Under the pieces are notes generated by a model. The model was given only the letters and a program-made list of their open reading frames with translations, did no database searches and was not told the DNA's origin. Of a DNA stretch of 64,000 nt, positions 5,577-41,356 are shown piece by piece. The stretch lies in assembly GCF_056712565.1 (NCBI RefSeq), contig NZ_CM160072.1. One strand, written 5' to 3'. The first letter of the stretch is position 1; every line of letters starts with the position of its first letter. The position numbers and the translations under genes are program-made.

Positions 5577-6518
5577 TTAATTTATTTTTAATGAATGGTA
5601 ATCTCGTGAGTTGACCGAAGATTTGAGATAACTGCAATCATTAACCGACAGTATTGCCGCTAATAGGCGACATACCAGTGCCTGCATTTGCAGCAATATA
5701 TCGTTACCATATTGACTGTTGTTAACACTTGAGAAACCAAGCGGTTGACCAAAAAAAATAGCCTCATGAAAATTATCATTGCGGATGCCAGAAATGTTTT
5801 TTTTACCTGACACCCATGTGGGGATTGATAACCCATAAATTTTGCACATCCACTTTAATCGCTTGTAATGATTTGGCGGTTTTTTATCAGGAGCCTTGTC
5901 ATGCTCAGCCCACGACAAAGCAAAGCACCCATCAAGTGCCATGTAAAGATACTGGAATTTTTCAAAAGAAAGGTATTGTGGGTTTTGAGATAAGAATAGT
6001 GCATGCACCACTGCCGCAATTCTTTTGGGGGAGTGCGCATCCTTATGTTTGCCATTTATATAATTAAGAGCCAGTTCTATGACTTCTTTTTCAGAGCATC
6101 CAACGAGAATAAAGTCGGTTAACTTAGTGGGCTTGATAGTGGTTGCATCTAAAAAACCAGCGTCAGTGGTTGTCAATCTTATTCCCTTGAAAAAAGAAAG
6201 GCACCACACAATAAAGTTGAGAGTTTCTAACGAGGATGTATTTTTTAATTTTAGTGTGTGCGTTTTGGGCATACTGAATACTCGGTGACTATAAGGCATT
6301 GTGGATATGCCACCATTAAGGTTATATACATCTTGGTTTCCAGGGTATATCCAACCTTTCACAACGTTTTTATCATTATTAACACGCTCCACTTTCTCAT
6401 TGAGACCAGGTAAAGTAAGCAAAGAAAATTGTTCAGTCTCAATGTTAACTTCTACTGGATAGTATCCAAACTCCGACATAATCTCATTGGGTTGCTGTTC
6501 GTCAACTTCACCTTGCAT
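5577..6518 (-). CDS. hypothetical cargo protein, 313 aa, with RNxxxH motif (possible HEPN-like)
   Basis: AT-rich ORF unlike flanking phage DNA; motif GIRNDNFHEAIFF (R-x4-H) near C-terminus; no other recognisable domain. Confidence 0.6.
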   Translation of the reverse strand: MQGEVDEQQPNEIMSEFGYYPVEVNIETEQFSLLTLPGLNEKVERVNNDKNVVKGWIYPGNQDVYNLNGGISTMPYSHRVFSMPKTHTLKLKNTSSLETLNFIVWCLSFFKGIRLTTTDAGFLDATTIKPTKLTDFILVGCSEKEVIELALNYINGKHKDAHSPKRIAAVVHALFLSQNPQYLSFEKFQYLYMALDGCFALSWAEHDKAPDKKPPNHYKRLKWMCKIYGLSIPTWVSGKKNISGIRNDNFHEAIFFGQPLGFSSVNNSQYGNDILLQMQALVCRLLAAILSVNDCSYLKSSVNSRDYHSLKIN

Positions 6519-6993: not shown

Positions 6994-7998
6994 CTAATTT
7001 ACATGTATGTAGAGTTCACCGTCGCCAGACCAATCGGGACACTCTAAAACAAGCCCAAACTGCTTGAATATTTCATCAATGATTATTGTTATCTCCCGAA
7101 AATCACCAAAACCTGTAATGTGCTGGTCATTAAACTTCCCATAAAGATTCTGAAAAGCAATGCCTAATTCTGATAATTGATATCTTATCTTTGAGTTGGA
7201 TAGTGTAAGGGATAGCTTTGGATCGTATTCTTTAATATTGATGTTTAGAGAATGGACATAACCCATCGCATAAGCATAAGAGTTGATGATTAGCCTGATA
7301 CGTTTTTTTACTTCGAGATACATGTCATTCAGAGAAATATTACCGTACTTATAACCCCAGATGAGTTTTTCAATCTCGTCAGATACTTCATTTACAACAG
7401 TGTCAAGATTCTCTAAAAATAAATCGATAGTTTCTTGAGGGGCAGACCCCGAAGACATGTAATTAGCGAGATATTCAGACCATGCACGCGTGGCTGAGAT
7501 AAGAAGCGCGCTACCATACTCGTTGACTGTAAAGTTTTGGGCTAAGCATGTTAGTAAGTTTTTTTCATGTACGTGCACTAATTCATGGTGAATGCGATGG
7601 ATGACTGCGAGGTATCCTTCTTCTTTCAGTTTTAAGAAGCTACCATCATTGAAAAGCTCAACAAAAAAATCAATCGATAGCACAAGGGTATATTCTTCAC
7701 ATAGCCCATCATTGCCAATTTTTGTTACTAACTGCCCGACGGCTGCGCCCTGTTTACTATTGGTAAATGAACTAGGGGATTTGTGTTGGTAAGAGGATGT
7801 TACCTTTTGAAGAGCTTCACTGAAGTTATAGGAAACAATCACGCATTTTAATTTGGAGATATCAAGATTGAGATTTTTTGTTAAAGCTCGGATAGCTTCT
7901 AGTGTGAAATTACCGATATTATTTGCTTCTTGCTCAGTAGCGAAACCTTCGAGGGTTATTTTAAAATCAGTTTCCAAAATATTAATCTCCGCGCCCAT
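6994..7998 (-). CDS. hypothetical cargo protein, 334 aa, HExxH...E zinc-metallopeptidase-like motif
   Basis: AT-rich ORF between cos and portal gene; HELVH with Glu 22 residues after first His (gluzincin-like spacing). Confidence 0.6.
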   Translation of the reverse strand: MGAEINILETDFKITLEGFATEQEANNIGNFTLEAIRALTKNLNLDISKLKCVIVSYNFSEALQKVTSSYQHKSPSSFTNSKQGAAVGQLVTKIGNDGLCEEYTLVLSIDFFVELFNDGSFLKLKEEGYLAVIHRIHHELVHVHEKNLLTCLAQNFTVNEYGSALLISATRAWSEYLANYMSSGSAPQETIDLFLENLDTVVNEVSDEIEKLIWGYKYGNISLNDMYLEVKKRIRLIINSYAYAMGYVHSLNINIKEYDPKLSLTLSNSKIRYQLSELGIAFQNLYGKFNDQHITGFGDFREITIIIDEIFKQFGLVLECPDWSGDGELYIHVN

Positions 7999-13061: not shown

Positions 13062-13811
13062 ATGACGAGCCCCGCACAGCGTCACATGATGCGGGTCTCG
13101 GCCTCTCAAGCCGCGCAGCGGGAACAAGCCCCGCTGCGCCATGCAACCGCCTACGAGCAGATGCTGGTAAAGCTGGCCGATGACCGCCGCACGTTGAAAA
13201 CCATCCGTTCAAACGAACTGAAAGCCGCGAAAAAGCGTGAGCTGCTGCCGTTCTATGCGCCGTGGGTCGCCGGTGTGCTGGCTGATGGCCGTGGTGCGCA
13301 GGATGACATTCTGATGACAGTCATGCTGTGGCGTCTCGATGCCGGTGATATCGCTGGCGCGCTGGAAATTGCGCCATACGCGCTGAAGTACGGCCTCACC
13401 TCTGACTATCGCCGCACGACACCTTACATGCTGGTTGAGGAGGTGGCGCTTGCCGCGCTGCGCCTGCGCGATGCCGGTGAGCCTGTCGACCTCGCATTAC
13501 TGCTGACCACCCTTAGCCTGACCGACGGCGCAGACGTTCCCGATATGGTGCGCGCTCGACTGCATAAGGTGACCGGTCTAACCCTGCGCGATGCCGGTCA
13601 GAGCGCCGAAGCACTGGCACAGTTTCAGCGCGCGATGCAGCTCGACCGCAATGCCGGTGTGCGCAAAGAGATTGAGCGACTGGAGCGGGCATTGAAGCCT
13701 AAGCCCGATGCCGCGCCCCGTAAAACGACTAAACCGCGCACGCGCAAACCTGCCACCAAACCGGCGGCAAAGCGCGGGCGTCCACCAAAGGCGGTAAAAA
13801 CCGCCGGTTAA
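13062..13811 (+). CDS. M: terminase small/endonuclease subunit (P2 gpM family)
   Basis: 249 aa, basic Pro/Lys-rich C-terminus. Confidence 0.75.
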   Translation: MTSPAQRHMMRVSASQAAQREQAPLRHATAYEQMLVKLADDRRTLKTIRSNELKAAKKRELLPFYAPWVAGVLADGRGAQDDILMTVMLWRLDAGDIAGALEIAPYALKYGLTSDYRRTTPYMLVEEVALAALRLRDAGEPVDLALLLTTLSLTDGADVPDMVRARLHKVTGLTLRDAGQSAEALAQFQRAMQLDRNAGVRKEIERLERALKPKPDAAPRKTTKPRTRKPATKPAAKRGRPPKAVKTAG

Positions 13812-16853: not shown

Positions 16854-16880
16854 AGGCTGGATAAACACCAGCCTTGATTT
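16854..16880. terminator. hairpin between convergent S and HIT-family gene (bidirectional terminator candidate)
   Basis: GGCTGG-ataaacac-CAGCC followed by T-rich run. Confidence 0.4.
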
Positions 16881-17524
16881 TATAGTTTGAAATCTGCGTA
16901 ATTATCAATAACCTCTAGAACACCGCTGATGTTGTTATCTCTGCGCCAATTCCAATTGCCATGTATCAAATTTGCATTAGAATAAAGATATCTAAGGAAC
17001 TGAGATGGTAAGAGTGGTTTGTTGCATAAAAATTCATCATAACTATTACTCATATACCACACATATCCATTTTTAATGTCAAAACTTAAATTCTCACCTT
17101 CAATTTTCTTAAAGTTAATTTCTTTATTTAGAGCATTTTCAAACTCTTGTGTATAATAAACACAGTGTATATGAGCGTGAGAAATGCACCCTCCTGAACG
17201 ATCTATATTTTCACCTGCTCCGCTTTCAAAGAAAATTAGAGATCTACCAGATTGGTGGATTATAAATTCATTAAGTTCTCGCAGAATCTCCTTGCCATTA
17301 CTCCGGGTATCTCGATCAAGAGCAGCAAAGGAGTTGATATGCCGCTTAGGAATCAGCATCACATGCGAATTATTTAGCGGGCCAATACTAGGTACAATTA
17401 GAAAATCATTTGTTTCTGCAATGATATTTTTCTTGTCATTTACGATTTCATCGTATCCTTTGATAAGGCTAATGCCATTTATTTCATCGCATATTCCACA
17501 GAACGAATTACAAGAATTATTCAC
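16880..17524 (-). CDS. HIT-family (histidine triad) protein with ~80-aa C-terminal extension; cargo gene
   Basis: CNSFCGICDE, NSHVMLIPKRHI and histidine triad HAHIHCV; AT-rich. Confidence 0.7.
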   Translation of the reverse strand: MNNSCNSFCGICDEINGISLIKGYDEIVNDKKNIIAETNDFLIVPSIGPLNNSHVMLIPKRHINSFAALDRDTRSNGKEILRELNEFIIHQSGRSLIFFESGAGENIDRSGGCISHAHIHCVYYTQEFENALNKEINFKKIEGENLSFDIKNGYVWYMSNSYDEFLCNKPLLPSQFLRYLYSNANLIHGNWNWRRDNNISGVLEVIDNYADFKL

Positions 17525-18089
17525 GTTTATTGTCTCCTGGTTTTTTAGGGAGCAATTTTTCAGCCCAAGATGCGAGTCGGCTTAGAACTAAGTCTGAAAA
17601 ATATCCTAATATAAAACAAATCGAGAATGCAATTTTGGTCTTACCATGCCCTTTAATGGAGGATACAAACGTATCCGGAGATAATATCGTATAAGAACAA
17701 AAAGCCACTAAAGCAGCTAAGAACGGAATAAAAATCCTCCAGTAGAACTTATGGGATTCCCAAGGGAAATTATACTGATTGTTTTTCCCTCTAGCAGTTA
17801 CTCTATAAAACCATTTTGCATTATACACCCACCCTCCAAAAAAACCACCAAGAATAGAAAACAAAGATATTTTATTATTATATGACAGCTCAAAAACAAA
17901 TTGAAAAAGAAAGGCGAGAATGCAACCTATTACAAAAAGAACTATTAAATAAGCAAATTCGAATTTTATTTGTTCACAATCGTTATTAAAATAAGGCACA
18001 ACCTCATCATCGCCTAAGGTTTTTTTTCTTTCAGTCATTTGCCAAACACCTTCATTTTTTACTGTGAGCCAGGGTAATTGCATATTCAA
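17517..18089 (-). CDS. small integral membrane protein (about 4 TM helices); cargo gene, overlaps HIT gene by 8 nt
   Basis: Hydrophobic stretches YLIVLFVIGCILAFLFQFVF, ISLFSILGGFFGGWVY, IFIPFLAALVAFCSYTIL, IAFSICFILGYFSDLVL; AT-rich. Confidence 0.65.
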   Translation of the reverse strand: MNMQLPWLTVKNEGVWQMTERKKTLGDDEVVPYFNNDCEQIKFEFAYLIVLFVIGCILAFLFQFVFELSYNNKISLFSILGGFFGGWVYNAKWFYRVTARGKNNQYNFPWESHKFYWRIFIPFLAALVAFCSYTILSPDTFVSSIKGHGKTKIAFSICFILGYFSDLVLSRLASWAEKLLPKKPGDNKRE

Positions 18090-27173: not shown

Positions 27174-27659
27174 ATGATGCTTGCTCTCGGAATGTTTGTG
27201 TTTGAACTTCGCACCCTGCCTTACCAGTCGATGCAGCATTCGAAAGATTATCGCTGGGTGTCCAATGACCGGGTGGGTAAACCACCTGCCTATCAGTTTC
27301 TTGGCGAGGGGGAAACCTCTATACAGCTTGCTGGTACGCTATACCCCGCTATCACTGGCGGTTGGATCTCACTAAAGGCTGTAGAGGTGATGGCCAATGA
27401 AGGCAGAGCGTGGCCGTTGATAGAGGGAACCGGAAATATCCTCGGGATGTATATCGTCGATAAAGTATCGACTACACGCACCGAGTTTTTCAGTGATGGT
27501 GCGGCCAGAAAGATTGATTTCACGCTTTCGCTAAAACGGGTTGATGAATCGCTGACAGAGATGTTTGGTGACCTGAATAAACAGGCCAGTGAGCTTCTCG
27601 GCTCTGCCGGTAATTTGACAGATAAACTGCAGGGTATGCCCGGAGGTTTCACTGCATGA
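27174..27659 (+). CDS. U: tail protein U (P2 gpU family)
   Basis: 161 aa, order T-U-D. Confidence 0.75.
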   Translation: MMLALGMFVFELRTLPYQSMQHSKDYRWVSNDRVGKPPAYQFLGEGETSIQLAGTLYPAITGGWISLKAVEVMANEGRAWPLIEGTGNILGMYIVDKVSTTRTEFFSDGAARKIDFTLSLKRVDESLTEMFGDLNKQASELLGSAGNLTDKLQGMPGGFTA

Positions 27660-28825
27660 TAACGGGGATGGCAATTGACGCCGGTGCCAGCCTTGCACCG
27701 GCATTTATGTTGACGCTGAACAGCCAGGACATTACCAGCAATTTTAGTGACCGATTGATTTCTCTCACCATGACCGATAACCGGGGTTTTGAGGCTGACC
27801 AGCTCGATATTGAGCTTGATGATACCGACGGGAAAGTTGAGTTACCCCTGCGCGGGGCAGTGCTGACGCTGTGGCTTGGCTGGCAGGGCTCGGCGTTGCT
27901 GAATAAGGGGGATTTTACGGTCGATGAGATTGAGCACCGGGGAGCGCCTGACACCCTGACCATCCGGGCGCGCAGCGCGGACTTTCGCGGCACGCTAAAT
28001 TCCAGGCGTGAAGAGTCATGGCATGACACCACCATCGGAGAACTGGTCAGCACCATCGCAAAACGCAATAAACTGACGGCCAGTGTCGCTGATTCACTGA
28101 AAAAAATCCCGGTACCGCATATCGACCAGTCGCAGGAGTCCGACGCGGTGTTTCTGACCCGGCTAGCTGACCGAAACGGAGCTGCGGTGTCAGTGAAAGC
28201 GGGGAAATTGCTGTTTCTGAAAGCCGGTAGTGCGATGACGGCCAGCGGCAGACCCATCCCGCAAATGACGCTGACCCGTAGCAATGGTGACCGTCATCAA
28301 TTTGCTATTGCCGACCGTGGGGCTTATACCGGCGTAACGGCAAAATGGTTGCACACCAAAGACCCGAAGCCGCAAAAGCAAAAAGTGACGCTGAAACGCC
28401 AGCCAAAAGAGAAACACCTACGCGCACTGGAGCACCCGAAAGCAAAGCCTGTCAGCAAAAAGACAAAGGCCAAAAAAGAGCAGGAGGCTCGCGAGGGTGA
28501 GTATATGGCCGGTGAAGCCGATAACGTGCTGGCGCTGACAACGGTCTACGCATCAAAGGCGCAGGCGATGCGTGCCGCTCAGGCTAAGTGGGATAAACTG
28601 CAGCGAGGCGTTGCGGAGTTTTCAATCACACTGGCGCTAGGGCGAGCGGATTTATTTCCTGAGACGCCTGTACGTGTGTCGGGCTTTAAGCGCGTAATAG
28701 ACGAACAGGTATGGTTAATCAGTAAAGTAACTCACATTCTGAATAATAGTGGCTTCACGACGGGGTTAGAGCTTGAGGTTAAGCTATCTGATATAGAGTA
28801 CAGCTCAGAGGAAAGCGAAATATAA
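27656..28825 (+). CDS. D: tail protein D / late control D (P2 gpD family)
   Basis: 389 aa as P2 D. Confidence 0.8.
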   Translation: MITGMAIDAGASLAPAFMLTLNSQDITSNFSDRLISLTMTDNRGFEADQLDIELDDTDGKVELPLRGAVLTLWLGWQGSALLNKGDFTVDEIEHRGAPDTLTIRARSADFRGTLNSRREESWHDTTIGELVSTIAKRNKLTASVADSLKKIPVPHIDQSQESDAVFLTRLADRNGAAVSVKAGKLLFLKAGSAMTASGRPIPQMTLTRSNGDRHQFAIADRGAYTGVTAKWLHTKDPKPQKQKVTLKRQPKEKHLRALEHPKAKPVSKKTKAKKEQEAREGEYMAGEADNVLALTTVYASKAQAMRAAQAKWDKLQRGVAEFSITLALGRADLFPETPVRVSGFKRVIDEQVWLISKVTHILNNSGFTTGLELEVKLSDIEYSSEESEI

Positions 28826-28900
28826 AAAAGCAAATCATAACTTGCAAATGCAATTTTAGAGTTTATTATTCCCTCAAACGCGCCAGCAGGGGGAAAAATT

Positions 28901-29119
28901 ATGATGCACTGCCCGTTATGCCAAAACGCCGCACATGCTCGTACTAGCCGGTACCTTAGCACCGAAACGAAAGAACGTTATCACCAATGCCAGAACATAA
29001 ATTGCGGATGTACATTTATCACTTTTGAGACGCTATCAAGATTCATTGTGAAACCGGGCACTGTTGATCCTGCTCCGCCACATCCCATCAGAAACCAACA
29101 ACAGCAACTTTGGCTTTGA
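28901..29119 (+). CDS. ogr: late transcription activator, zinc finger (Ogr / 186 B family)
   Basis: 72 aa with CPLCQ...CQNINCGC zinc finger, last phage gene before host DNA. Confidence 0.8.
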   Translation: MMHCPLCQNAAHARTSRYLSTETKERYHQCQNINCGCTFITFETLSRFIVKPGTVDPAPPHPIRNQQQQLWL

Positions 29120-29141
29120 ACCTGCTTCGGCAGGTTTTTTT
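29119..29141 (+). terminator. intrinsic terminator after ogr
   Basis: AACCTGC-ttcg-GCAGGTT followed by TTTTT. Confidence 0.65.
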
Positions 29142-29195
29142 ATATCTGTCGCCATCGCGCCAATCTCTGCCGCCAATTTGCCGCCACCACCAATG

Positions 29196-29223
29196 AAAAA
29201 GGGGTTAGCAATTCGCTAACCCC
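29196..29223 (-). terminator. intrinsic terminator of rplS operon
   Basis: 9-bp stem GGGGTTAGC/GCTAACCCC followed by TTTTT on reverse strand. Confidence 0.65.
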
Positions 29224-29263
29224 TTGTTTCATAACACGCTTTGGATGTAGCGCGAAGACGTTA

Positions 29264-29614
<351 letters not shown>

Positions 29615-29652
29615 TTAATCTCTTATCCTGGGTAAACTGATATCTCGGGGGC

Positions 29653-30420
29653 TTACGCCATCCCATCATGTTTATGTTGCTGTTGTGCGTGTTCCGTTTT
29701 GAACTCCGCCAGCAACCTTGCTTGCTCTTCAGTCAGAGCCAGGTTTTCCAGAAGTTCAGGTCTTCTAAGCCAGGTACGGCCCAGCGACTGTTTCAAACGC
29801 CAGCGACGTATCTCGGCATGGTTACCCGACAGTAACACTGGCGGAACTTCCATCCCTTCTAACACCTCAGGCCGCGTATAGTGCGGGCAATCCAGCAATC
29901 CTTCAGCAAAGGAATCTTCCGTTGCCGAGGCTTCATGTCCCAGTACTCCCGGAATAAACCGGGAAACGGAGTCAATCAGCGTCATTGCTGGTAACTCACC
30001 ACCACTGAGAACGTAATCGCCGATTGACCATTCTTCGTCAATTTCGGTTTGGATCACGCGCTCATCTATACCTTCGTAGCGACCACACACCAGAATCAAT
30101 TTTTGATTCGTTGCCAGTTCGCTGACGCCCGCTTGATCAAGCTTGCGTCCCTGTGGTGACAGATAAATCACCTTTGCGCCTTCACCCGCCGCGGCTTTTG
30201 CTGCATGAATGGCGTCCCGCAAGGGTTGCACCATCATTAACATCCCCGGTCCGCCGCCGTAAGGACGATCGTCCACGGTACGGTGCCGGTCATGCGTGAA
30301 GTCGCGAGGACTCCAGCTCTGGATGCTCAGCAGGCCATTTTTAACTGCCCGGCCAGTTACCCCGTAATCGGTAATTGCGCGGAACATTTCAGGAAACAGG
30401 CTAATTATGCCAATCCACAT
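29653..30420 (-). CDS. trmD: tRNA (guanine37-N1)-methyltransferase
   Basis: 255 aa; conserved rimM-trmD-rplS order. Confidence 0.9.
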
Positions 30421-40561: not shown

Positions 40562-40924
40562 GGGGCTGATTCTGGATTCGACGGGATTTGCGAAACCCAA
40601 GGTGCATGCCGAGGGGCGGTTGGCCTCGTAAAAAGCCGCAAAAAATAGTCGCAAACGACGAAAACTACGCTTTAGCAGCTTAATAACCTGCTTAGAGCCC
40701 TCTCTCCCTAGCCTCCGCTCTTAGGACGGGGATCAAGAGAGGTCAAACCCAAAAGAGATCGCGTGGAAGCCCTGCCTGGGGTTGAAGCGTTAAAACTTAA
40801 TCAGGCTAGTTTGTTAGTGGCGTGTCCGTCCGCAGCTGGCAAGCGAATGTAAAGACTGACTAAGCATGTAGTACCGAGGATGTAGGAATTTCGGACGCGG
40901 GTTCAACTCCCGCCAGCTCCACCA
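40562..40924 (+). ncRNA. ssrA: tmRNA (transfer-messenger RNA)
   Basis: Starts GGGGCTGATTCTGGATTCGACGGG, contains tag ORF region (GCAAACGACGAAAACTACGCTTTAGCAGCTTAA), ends GGGTTCAACTCCCGCCAGCTCCACCA; 363 nt. Confidence 0.9.
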
Positions 40925-41052: not shown

Positions 41053-41077
41053 AAAGCCCGCTGATGCGGGCTTTTTT
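41053..41077 (+). terminator. intrinsic terminator downstream of ssrA
   Basis: AGCCCGC-tgat-GCGGGCT followed by TTTTTT. Confidence 0.55.
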
Positions 41078-41356
41078 GCTTCTTCTCTTTAGCCTGATTC
41101 GACACTCTCAATGCGGCCATAAACAACAACCCACTTTTCTTATACCGTAGCCTGTCCCCCTCTTCCTGCTTTCTAACCATAACAGATGTGAGCGTTTGCT
41201 ATGAGCGATATATAGTCATTCGTACCCTCCGATACTAATCATCACAGAAATTAATATATTCATTCCTTACTGAAAAGCTATGAAGTAGATATATAGGATT
41301 GGGGCGCGTATGGCACTGGACAGTTATGCATCTCCGAATATTATTCCGGAGCTAAG

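Follow-up and report, generated by a model that had tools for sequence, protein, structure and literature searches.

Where a P2-family prophage meets the ribosomal-protein gene rplS in an Escherichia coli chromosome, it has to be asked at which base phage DNA gives way to host DNA, and to which of the two the transcription terminator next to rplS belongs. The locus lies within a 64,000-nucleotide stretch of DNA, the whole of which is referred to here as the window. Two terminator hairpins converge between the last prophage gene and rplS, leaving a gap of 54 bp (29142-29195). The initial annotation took the hairpin on the reverse strand for the resident terminator of the rplS operon, expected the att core in the spacer of ~55 bp between the hairpins, and had the prophage inserted immediately 3' of the operon without disrupting it.

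The identity of the prophage was established from the window together with a public genome, SF-468, which is 100% identical to window 28880-29640. Two genes define the prophage end inside the window:

27656-28825, + strand: gpD-like tail/baseplate hub gene (PF05954 Phage_GPD, E=1e-25), the final late gene ahead of ogr
28901-29119, + strand: Ogr/Pag-type zinc-finger late activator, ogr (PF04606 Ogr_Delta, E=1.8e-20), the outermost gene at the ogr end of the prophage

The gpD-like gene is annotated in SF-468 as 'phage late control D family protein', and ogr adjoins it at the att-proximal end of the late region, as in P2-family (Peduoviridae) prophages. Over the gpD-ogr-attR stretch (window 28600-29263), nucleotide identity to the pag-holding region of PSP3 is ~90%, and the DNA upstream shows 89-93% nucleotide identity to PSP3, SEN1, Midge, RCIP0057 and EtG across ~73% of 25 kb. 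In SF-468, the prophage spans rplS to yfiB and the P2-type gene order is complete from int to ogr, with int, cI, replication, capsid, tail, lysis and ogr genes all lying between an intact attL and an intact attR. The tyrosine integrase gene is adjacent to attP/attL; it lies outside the window and was read from SF-468, where it matches PF00589 and PF24624 and encodes a protein 91% identical to the Int of PSP3. On these comparisons we assign the prophage to the Peduoviridae (P2 family) as a PSP3-like member with a 186-type integrase. The part of the initial annotation that has the Ogr side of a P2-family prophage abutting rplS is borne out by PF04606, PF05954, the PSP3-like identity and, for rplS, PF01245.

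The prophage also carries four ORFs that look like cargo. Two of these, at 5577-6518 (-) and 6994-7998 (-), encode 313 and 334 aa and occupy the interval separating the portal gene from the replication region, which in P2-like phages is a variable cargo spot; no match to either was obtained from Pfam or PADLOC. The other two, at 16880-17524 (-) and 17517-18089 (-), sit on the opposite strand amid baseplate/tail genes and have the look of a moron cassette, consisting of a weak HIT-family match (PF01230, DcpS_C, CwfJ_C_1) and a neighbour without assignment. PADLOC and Pfam searches on all four returned that weak HIT-family match and nothing else.

Between the end of ogr and rplS, the following features were delineated:

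29118-29141, + strand: intrinsic terminator of ogr, GAACCTGC-TTCG-GCAGGTTT, with an 8-bp stem, a TTCG loop and a T7 run (from folding)
29147-29154, 29168-29175 and 29179-29186, + strand: three direct TGYCGCCA repeats, putative integrase arm-type sites of the P arm, with starts 21 and 11 bp apart
29196-29225, - strand: predicted phage-borne surrogate rplS terminator, AAGGGGTTAGC-GAATT-GCTAACCCCTT followed by TTTCATT, with 12 pairs (from folding)
29226-29263, - strand: phage-borne copy of the stop-proximal rplS 3' UTR (alignments A1, A3 and A4)
29264-29278, unstranded: att core, T(C/T)AGTTAAGACGCTC, 15 bp, with one attP/attB mismatch, at 29265
29264-29611, - strand: rplS, encoding L19 (PF01245, E=1.3e-50)

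Both of the convergent hairpins that had been reported are thus present, close to where they had been placed (29118-29141, + strand, and 29196-29225, - strand), and both fold significantly. The ogr terminator has a folding energy of -11.6 kcal/mol (z=-3.4; 0/200 shuffles as stable) and is kept in PSP3, SEN1, SW9, Midge and RCIP0057 (alignment A1). For the second hairpin, the energy is -24 kcal/mol (z=-5.0), again with none of the 200 shuffles as stable; its stem, GGGGTTAGC/GCTAACCCC, pairs 29201-29209 with 29215-29223 and is lengthened by A-U pairs, and its U run is templated by A29196-29200. A plain pattern scan of a 2.5-kb stretch found 5 terminator-like sites against 3.1 expected, which is no enrichment, and the significance of the hairpins therefore rests on folding energies and conservation. 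Rfam, searched with 28000-30000 at E<=1, returned no match, and so no known sRNA or regulatory RNA in that interval.

The crossover was mapped by comparing attP, attB, attL and attR. Since attL falls outside the window, it was taken from SF-468. The attP sequences came from phage records not deposited as prophages, namely PSP3 (L002), SEN1, SW9, SI22, Midge (originating from lake water) and RCIP0057 (from sewage); vB_EcoM-613R3 was dropped as an attP source because its record carries host flanks. In all of these phages, the whole stretch equivalent to window 29120-29278, second hairpin included, is found between ogr and int, and the identity of attP with rplS stops past 29278. Approached from the host side, the megablast match to the window begins at 29266 in 29/29 spread-sampled E. 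coli genomes that lack the junction with the prophage. The prophage-free site of one such genome, NCTC122, was read base by base (attB: ...AAAAAAGGGCCAGCCAATTGGCCAGCCCTTCTTAACAGGATGTCGCTTAAGCGAAATCTTAGTTAAGACGCTCtttgat...) and is unlike the window everywhere left of 29266; its terminator differs and its 3' UTR is 11 nt shorter than that of the window.

What the four sites have in common is AGTTAAGACGCTC, 13 bp at 29266-29278, which is identical in attP, attB, attL and attR and is the sole word of at least 13 bases shared by the attL and attR neighbourhoods of SF-468. A seven-way alignment of attR, attL, attB and attP places the switch of parent in each junction exactly at AGTTAAGACGCTC. In the window, attR reads ...GACGTTATCAGTTAAGACGCTCtttgat; the order at attL of SF-468 is native E. 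coli terminator and UTR, then TTAGTTAAGACGCTC, then the phage P' sequence CTATTAACACCCC..., then int. Because attR retains the phage TCA and attL the host TTA, the exchange must have taken place to the right of 29265. An independent attR/attL pair is available from Escherichia sp. E1V33 (L187 and L188), and a metagenomic IMG/VR contig in attP form (L052) reads GTTATCAGTTAAGACGCTCCTATTAACACCCC, which is the left part of attR joined exactly to the right part of attL. The attP excised from the window prophage would read ...GTTATCAGTTAAGACGCTCCTATTAAC....

These alignments place the crossover at 29266-29278, an interval made up of the last four rplS codons (Glu-Arg-Leu-Asn) together with the first base of the stop, and it is these 13 bp that must contain the strand-exchange region. 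Comparison with prophage-free genomes, the check that had been proposed with the initial annotation, therefore moves the att core out of the ~55-bp spacer, which does not recur at attL, to AGTTAAGACGCTC: NCTC122 departs from the window left of 29266, in a species in which the yfiB-rplS junction is intact in 5297/5425 genomes.

The position of the crossover has consequences for rplS itself. The shared core takes in the last four codons along with the first stop base (29266-29278), and stop bases 2-3 (29264-29265) are phage-derived, turning the native TAA into TGA in the lysogen. The L19 protein is unchanged, WP_000065253.1 being annotated both in the lysogen and in a non-lysogen. The earlier statement that the insertion spares the operon thus holds for the protein; the insertion point itself is not 3' of the operon, as the exchange occurred inside the last 13 nt of the rplS frame and stop. 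In other words, the prophage ends inside rplS, not 70-120 bp ahead of it. The altered stop codon and UTR might, we infer, bear on L19 expression.

Just beyond the stop codon, the stretch 29226-29263 is not found in E. coli attB, and a shorter native UTR stands in its place at attL. The phage type of this stop-proximal UTR has the pattern GGATGTAGCG...TCAGTT and includes a small hairpin in which 29249-29254 pairs with 29235-29240 (by eye, alignment A3). A small hairpin just past the rplS stop was also seen by eye in alignment A3 in all rplS 3' UTR types, its register and sequence varying; the E. coli version is UCGC-UUAA-GCGA.

The 54-bp spacer was examined in its own right. Its repeats, all on one strand, read TGTCGCCA at 29147, TGCCGCCA at 29168 and TGCCGCCA at 29179. 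Across the whole 64 kb there are 13 matches to TGYCGCCA against 6.8 expected, and three of them fall inside 40 bp, on one strand, in this spacer. They agree with the published arm consensus of 186-type integrases, tgccGCCActt, which occurs as direct repeats either side of the core (PMC3448106). A second pair of arm sites, TGCCGCCA-TAT-TGTCGCCA, is located on the P' arm, inside the last codons of int at attL, where the P' arm sequence, TGCCGCCATATTGTCGCCA, likewise matches the 186-type arm consensus. When attL and attR of SF-468 were compared, no recurrence of the spacer sequence was found at attL. We read the spacer as P arm and not as core, with the TGYCGCCA repeats as the presumptive binding sites of Int.

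Taken together, our reading is that 29119-29278 constitutes the attR junction (P arm, core and B') of a PSP3-like prophage with a 186-type integrase that recombined into the 3' end of rplS, and to this reading we give a probability of roughly 0.88.

On the same evidence, all DNA left of 29266, the 'rplS terminator' included, is phage DNA. The hairpin at 29196-29225 and the 38 bp beyond it are present in the virion attP sequences, in the ogr-int interval, and the resident E. coli rplS terminator, AAAAAAGGGCCAGCCAATTGGCCAGCCCTT, is found at attL beside yfiB, ~31 kb away. The phage segment nevertheless has the anatomy of an rplS 3' end. In Salmonella houtenae, the empty rplS site and the phage P arm can be aligned without interruption, starting at the A run, continuing over the hairpin and ~40 nt of UTR, and reaching the stop codon. 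When one genome per species was scanned across the Enterobacterales, 63 rplS loci were obtained, and every apparently prophage-free site among them follows one plan: stop codon, small hairpin, spacer, strong hairpin and U run. The phage copy agrees with the apparently prophage-free rplS sites of Enterobacter sp. R1, Cedecea and Kosakonia at 61-63/78 positions, compared with 48-50/78 for E. coli. The stem GGGGTTAGC/GCTAACCCC itself recurs beside rplS in Cedecea, Dryocola and Enterobacter sp. R1. In tblastn searches with ogr, gpD and int, the Cedecea and Enterobacter sp. R1 loci gave no match, and the Dryocola locus, which shows no adjoining prophage, gave only a weak and distant int match. The UTR type of the window, CATAACACGCTTTGGATGTAGCG, occurs at the rplS site of Kosakonia pseudosacchari, with no ogr or gpD within the 492 nt of upstream sequence on hand. 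Furthermore, the UTR type of the phage copies follows the host clade, for example in Pectobacterium and Brenneria. These relationships identify the second hairpin and its UTR (~80 bp), on sequence grounds, as a captured homologue of the enterobacterial rplS 3' UTR and terminator.

One prophage-free site is chimeric. In Salmonella enterica subsp. arizonae CCUG 6322T (L161, ~13445-13544), the empty rplS site combines a Salmonella-type terminator and distal UTR with a phage-type stop-proximal UTR (GGATGTAGCGTGAATACGTTATCAG) and a TGA stop; it may be the footprint of a past lysogeny or of homologous exchange.

One alternative holds that the hairpin is purely a phage element, either the int terminator or a sib-like retroregulator of the 186-type P arm, in which case its likeness to rplS would be convergence and any termination of rplS incidental. 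Consistent with this, every attP has the hairpin beyond the core on the downstream side of int, and in phage relatives targeting ssrA an identically flanked hairpin (AAAAAGGGG...CCCCTTGTTTTAT) stands right behind the same arm repeat, at the same distance of 9 nt (104/120 IMG/VR matches), so part of the hairpin could be a P-arm feature and not purely captured rplS. Convergence, however, does not readily account for a homology to empty rplS sites that is contiguous and in one register from the hairpin through ~40 nt of UTR to the stop, nor for the same stem at Cedecea, Dryocola and Enterobacter sp. R1 rplS genes that show no prophage beside them, nor for phage copies that track the UTR type of their host clade. 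Moreover, the roles of int terminator and rplS terminator are compatible, and capture of an rplS 3' end already has the hairpin terminating int in the free phage. We therefore consider a purely phage origin improbable.

Conservation of the captured segment was assessed across 68 aligned rplS 3' ends, apparently native and phage-borne. A hairpin with a U run in the rplS sense is present in 68/68, and the rplS sense is the more stable of the two in 54/68; the hairpins include 114 G.U pairs, which would fail on the other strand. Since the hairpins fall into two registers, RNAalifold applied to all 68 ends returned no more than 5 pairs, and it was replaced by per-sequence folding and a same-register subset. 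That subset comprises 23 distinct sequences, in which 5/11 pairs show changes on both sides and every cell is paired; the figure of '100% paired' is inflated, as membership of a single pairing register was what these sequences had been chosen for in advance. The covariation values were reached by 0-1/500 shuffles. This structural conservation supports a predicted terminator that works in the rplS sense.

The distribution of the site bears on a further alternative, that the junction is a fossil, a defective remnant fixed beside rplS whose att features no longer function. In favour of it, the public 'phage' record vB_EcoM-613R3, 99.7% identical, is a partial genome that includes host flanks. Against this, SF-468 has a full gene complement between intact attL and attR, and the P arm is carried by 57/5426 E. 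coli genomes, from varied hosts and countries and with 91.5%-100% identity, at a site that is empty in 5297 genomes. A rare P arm with that range of identity, among mostly empty sites, fits repeated recent integration and not an old fixed remnant, and we hold a fossil junction to be very improbable. The 128 E. coli genomes in which yfiB and rplS are split were rejected as a count of prophages, since at least one of them holds an IS200/IS605 element. In E. coli MSB1_3B (L199, 1898-2356), an IS200/IS605 transposase gene lies between yfiB and rplS, in the terminator region.

The reading with which we began takes the 29196-29225 hairpin for the terminator resident at E. coli rplS, with the prophage wholly downstream and the core in the ~55-bp spacer. 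It has in its favour a position and orientation that suit an rplS terminator and a spacer that is the only unassigned DNA between two recognisable terminators. It is refuted, however, by the virion attP sequences, which contain the hairpin and a further 38 bp, by the terminator and UTR of prophage-free E. coli, which differ and turn up at attL, and by the spacer, which does not recur there and agrees with the Int arm consensus instead.

Across the Enterobacterales, ogr was found beside the rplS site in 15/63 loci, and gpD also in 14 of those 15. The prophages at L153, L180, L182 and L196 have P2-type arm repeats (tgTGGaCa) and the same rplS core as the prophages with 186-type repeats. The rplS site of Pectobacterium fontis seems to hold a tandem of distinct P2-family prophages, L196 and L197. 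Two loci labelled as coming from outside the group, L180 (Chryseobacterium sp.) and L192 (a 'Bacillota bacterium' MAG), have an enterobacterial rplS together with this type of prophage, their ogr genes being 80% and 100% identical, and are probably contamination or mis-binning.

For the attR junction preferred here, we propose the following course of integration. The attP of the phage consists, in order, of the ogr terminator, the three Int arm sites, the ~80-bp captured rplS terminator and 3' UTR, a 13-15-bp core equivalent to the rplS stop and last four codons, and a P' arm overlapping the 3' end of int. Int and host factors would assemble on the arm sites, and strand exchange would take place inside AGTTAAGACGCTC. 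As a result, rplS keeps its coding sequence and gains phage stop bases 2-3 (TGA), a phage 3' UTR and a phage terminator; the resident E. coli 3' UTR and terminator are moved ~31 kb to attL, where the displaced terminator would go on serving yfiB on one of its sides and, on the other, now follows the phage cI-int operon. In the lysogen, transcription of the rplS operon would run through the core into the phage UTR and end 57 bp short of the convergent ogr terminator. We infer that the phage hairpin, by terminating this heavily transcribed operon, would shield ogr and the late genes from antisense read-through. The cI-int operon runs toward the core and would meet the phage rplS-type terminator in the free phage, in which the hairpin at 29196-29225 is predicted to end the int transcript, and the original host terminator in the lysogen. 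In effect, integration would make a host operon and a phage operon trade their homologous 3' ends.

The ssrA-targeting phages share more of this arrangement. In the ssrA-targeting Peduoviridae L007-L010, L013 and L014, as well as in 104/120 IMG/VR loci (L016-L135), TTTGCCGCCA is followed after 9 nt by AAAAAGGGG..CCCCTTGTTTTAT, as in the rplS-targeting phages, and the hairpin block is then directly followed by the reverse complement of the ssrA 3' end. The window has its own tmRNA gene, ssrA, at 40562-40924 (+). No Fels-2-type hairpin was found in the flank downstream of it; a terminator-like AAAGCCCGCTGATGCGGGCTTTTTT is located at ~41056-41080, past ssrA.

A broader proposal, which we offer as speculation and think unlikely, is that the arm repeat and terminator block (TTTGCCGCCA, 9 nt, AAAAAGGGG...CCCCTTGTTTTAT) forms a portable P-arm module, with which a 186-type integrase could be directed to the 3' end of another very strongly transcribed gene (rplS, ssrA) if just the short segment between hairpin and P' arm were exchanged. 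If this were so, the hairpin would end int in the free phage, end the host gene in the lysogen and shield the late region from host read-through. In addition, recombination between phage and host UTRs would leave phage-type rplS 3' ends in prophage-free genomes, with which the TGA chimera of CCUG 6322T fits, and past lysogeny would have quietly rewritten the 3' end of a ribosomal operon.

Of more immediate use, annotation pipelines would mislabel the phage-carried hairpin as a host terminator. If our reading is right, the junction provides a clean ribosomal-protein operon example in which an essential and heavily transcribed operon has its end rebuilt from the stop, 3' UTR and terminator that a phage brings along, and the original host 3' end would be handed to the phage cI-int operon at the other end of the prophage. 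The same 15-bp rplS end is used across the Enterobacterales by phages with two types of arm site. AGTTAAGACGCTC and the TGYCGCCA repeats would also give a defined attB/attP pair for prophage typing or integration vectors. Nothing in these findings overturns the known principles of phage integration.

The site has precedents. A PsP3-like prophage of Salmonella Pullorum, phiSPU2, is tabulated at 'yfiN-rplS' (PMC6449608, Table 1); it belongs to the same phage group (PsP3, ~90% identity) and occupies the same chromosomal neighbourhood as the window prophage. That table has only the intergenic label, whereas here the crossover is mapped to the rplS stop and last four codons; the window prophage also differs from the phiSPU2 entry in its E. 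coli host, in having yfiB as its left neighbour, and in that both the displaced terminator and its replacement have been identified. The PsP3 entry was left blank when att sites of P2-like phages were surveyed earlier (PMC3448106), the rplS site is not described in the Eganvirus paper (PMC11126057), and the searchable literature gave us no account of its core, of the altered stop codon or of the exchange of terminators. Phage integration at rplS has thus been described previously, only coarsely. Streptococcal prophages, too, use the 3' end of rplS, as with GBSInt3 (PMC7487436) and a phage of S. pyogenes between gph and rplS (PMC8115907). The host gene end is the same as here, but the phages and integrases are unrelated and the cores different, and streptococcal and enterobacterial phages seem to have come to the same kind of target independently.

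Further parallels are phages 186, Fels-2 and SopEPhi, which integrate at the 3' ends of tRNA or ssrA genes and carry a duplicate of the gene end in attP. They have the same integrase type and arm consensus, and they share the P-arm layout of arm repeat, 9 nt, and A run with hairpin, the 3' end of the target being restored by the phage. The window prophage is unlike them in that its target is a ribosomal-protein coding gene and only 13-15 bp are identical with E. coli; what is restored is mainly a stop codon, a 3' UTR and a terminator, in place of the end of a structured RNA.

For lambda, tI/sib lies downstream of int across attP. The hairpin described here may be likened to it in position, since it sits beyond the core from int and integration separates int from it. 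Unlike in lambda, int would face a homologous host terminator after integration, and we found no evidence of RNase III retroregulation.

A coding gene as target also has a counterpart. In Campbell's account of insertion sites, phage 21 and e14 are said to integrate into icd with a replacement 3' end. There, ~50 codons are replaced and amino-acid differences result. Both icd and rplS are coding genes split near the 3' end and rebuilt from homologous sequence carried by the phage; unlike at icd, only stop bases 2-3 and the non-coding tail are replaced at rplS, and the protein is unchanged. Rebuilding the 3' end of a target gene from attP is classical for tRNA genes, ssrA and icd. At rplS, the crossover falls in the 3' end of the target, attP is homologous to the segment displaced, and L19 is preserved. 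Integration of the window prophage is of this classical 3'-end-duplicating type and not a new mechanism.
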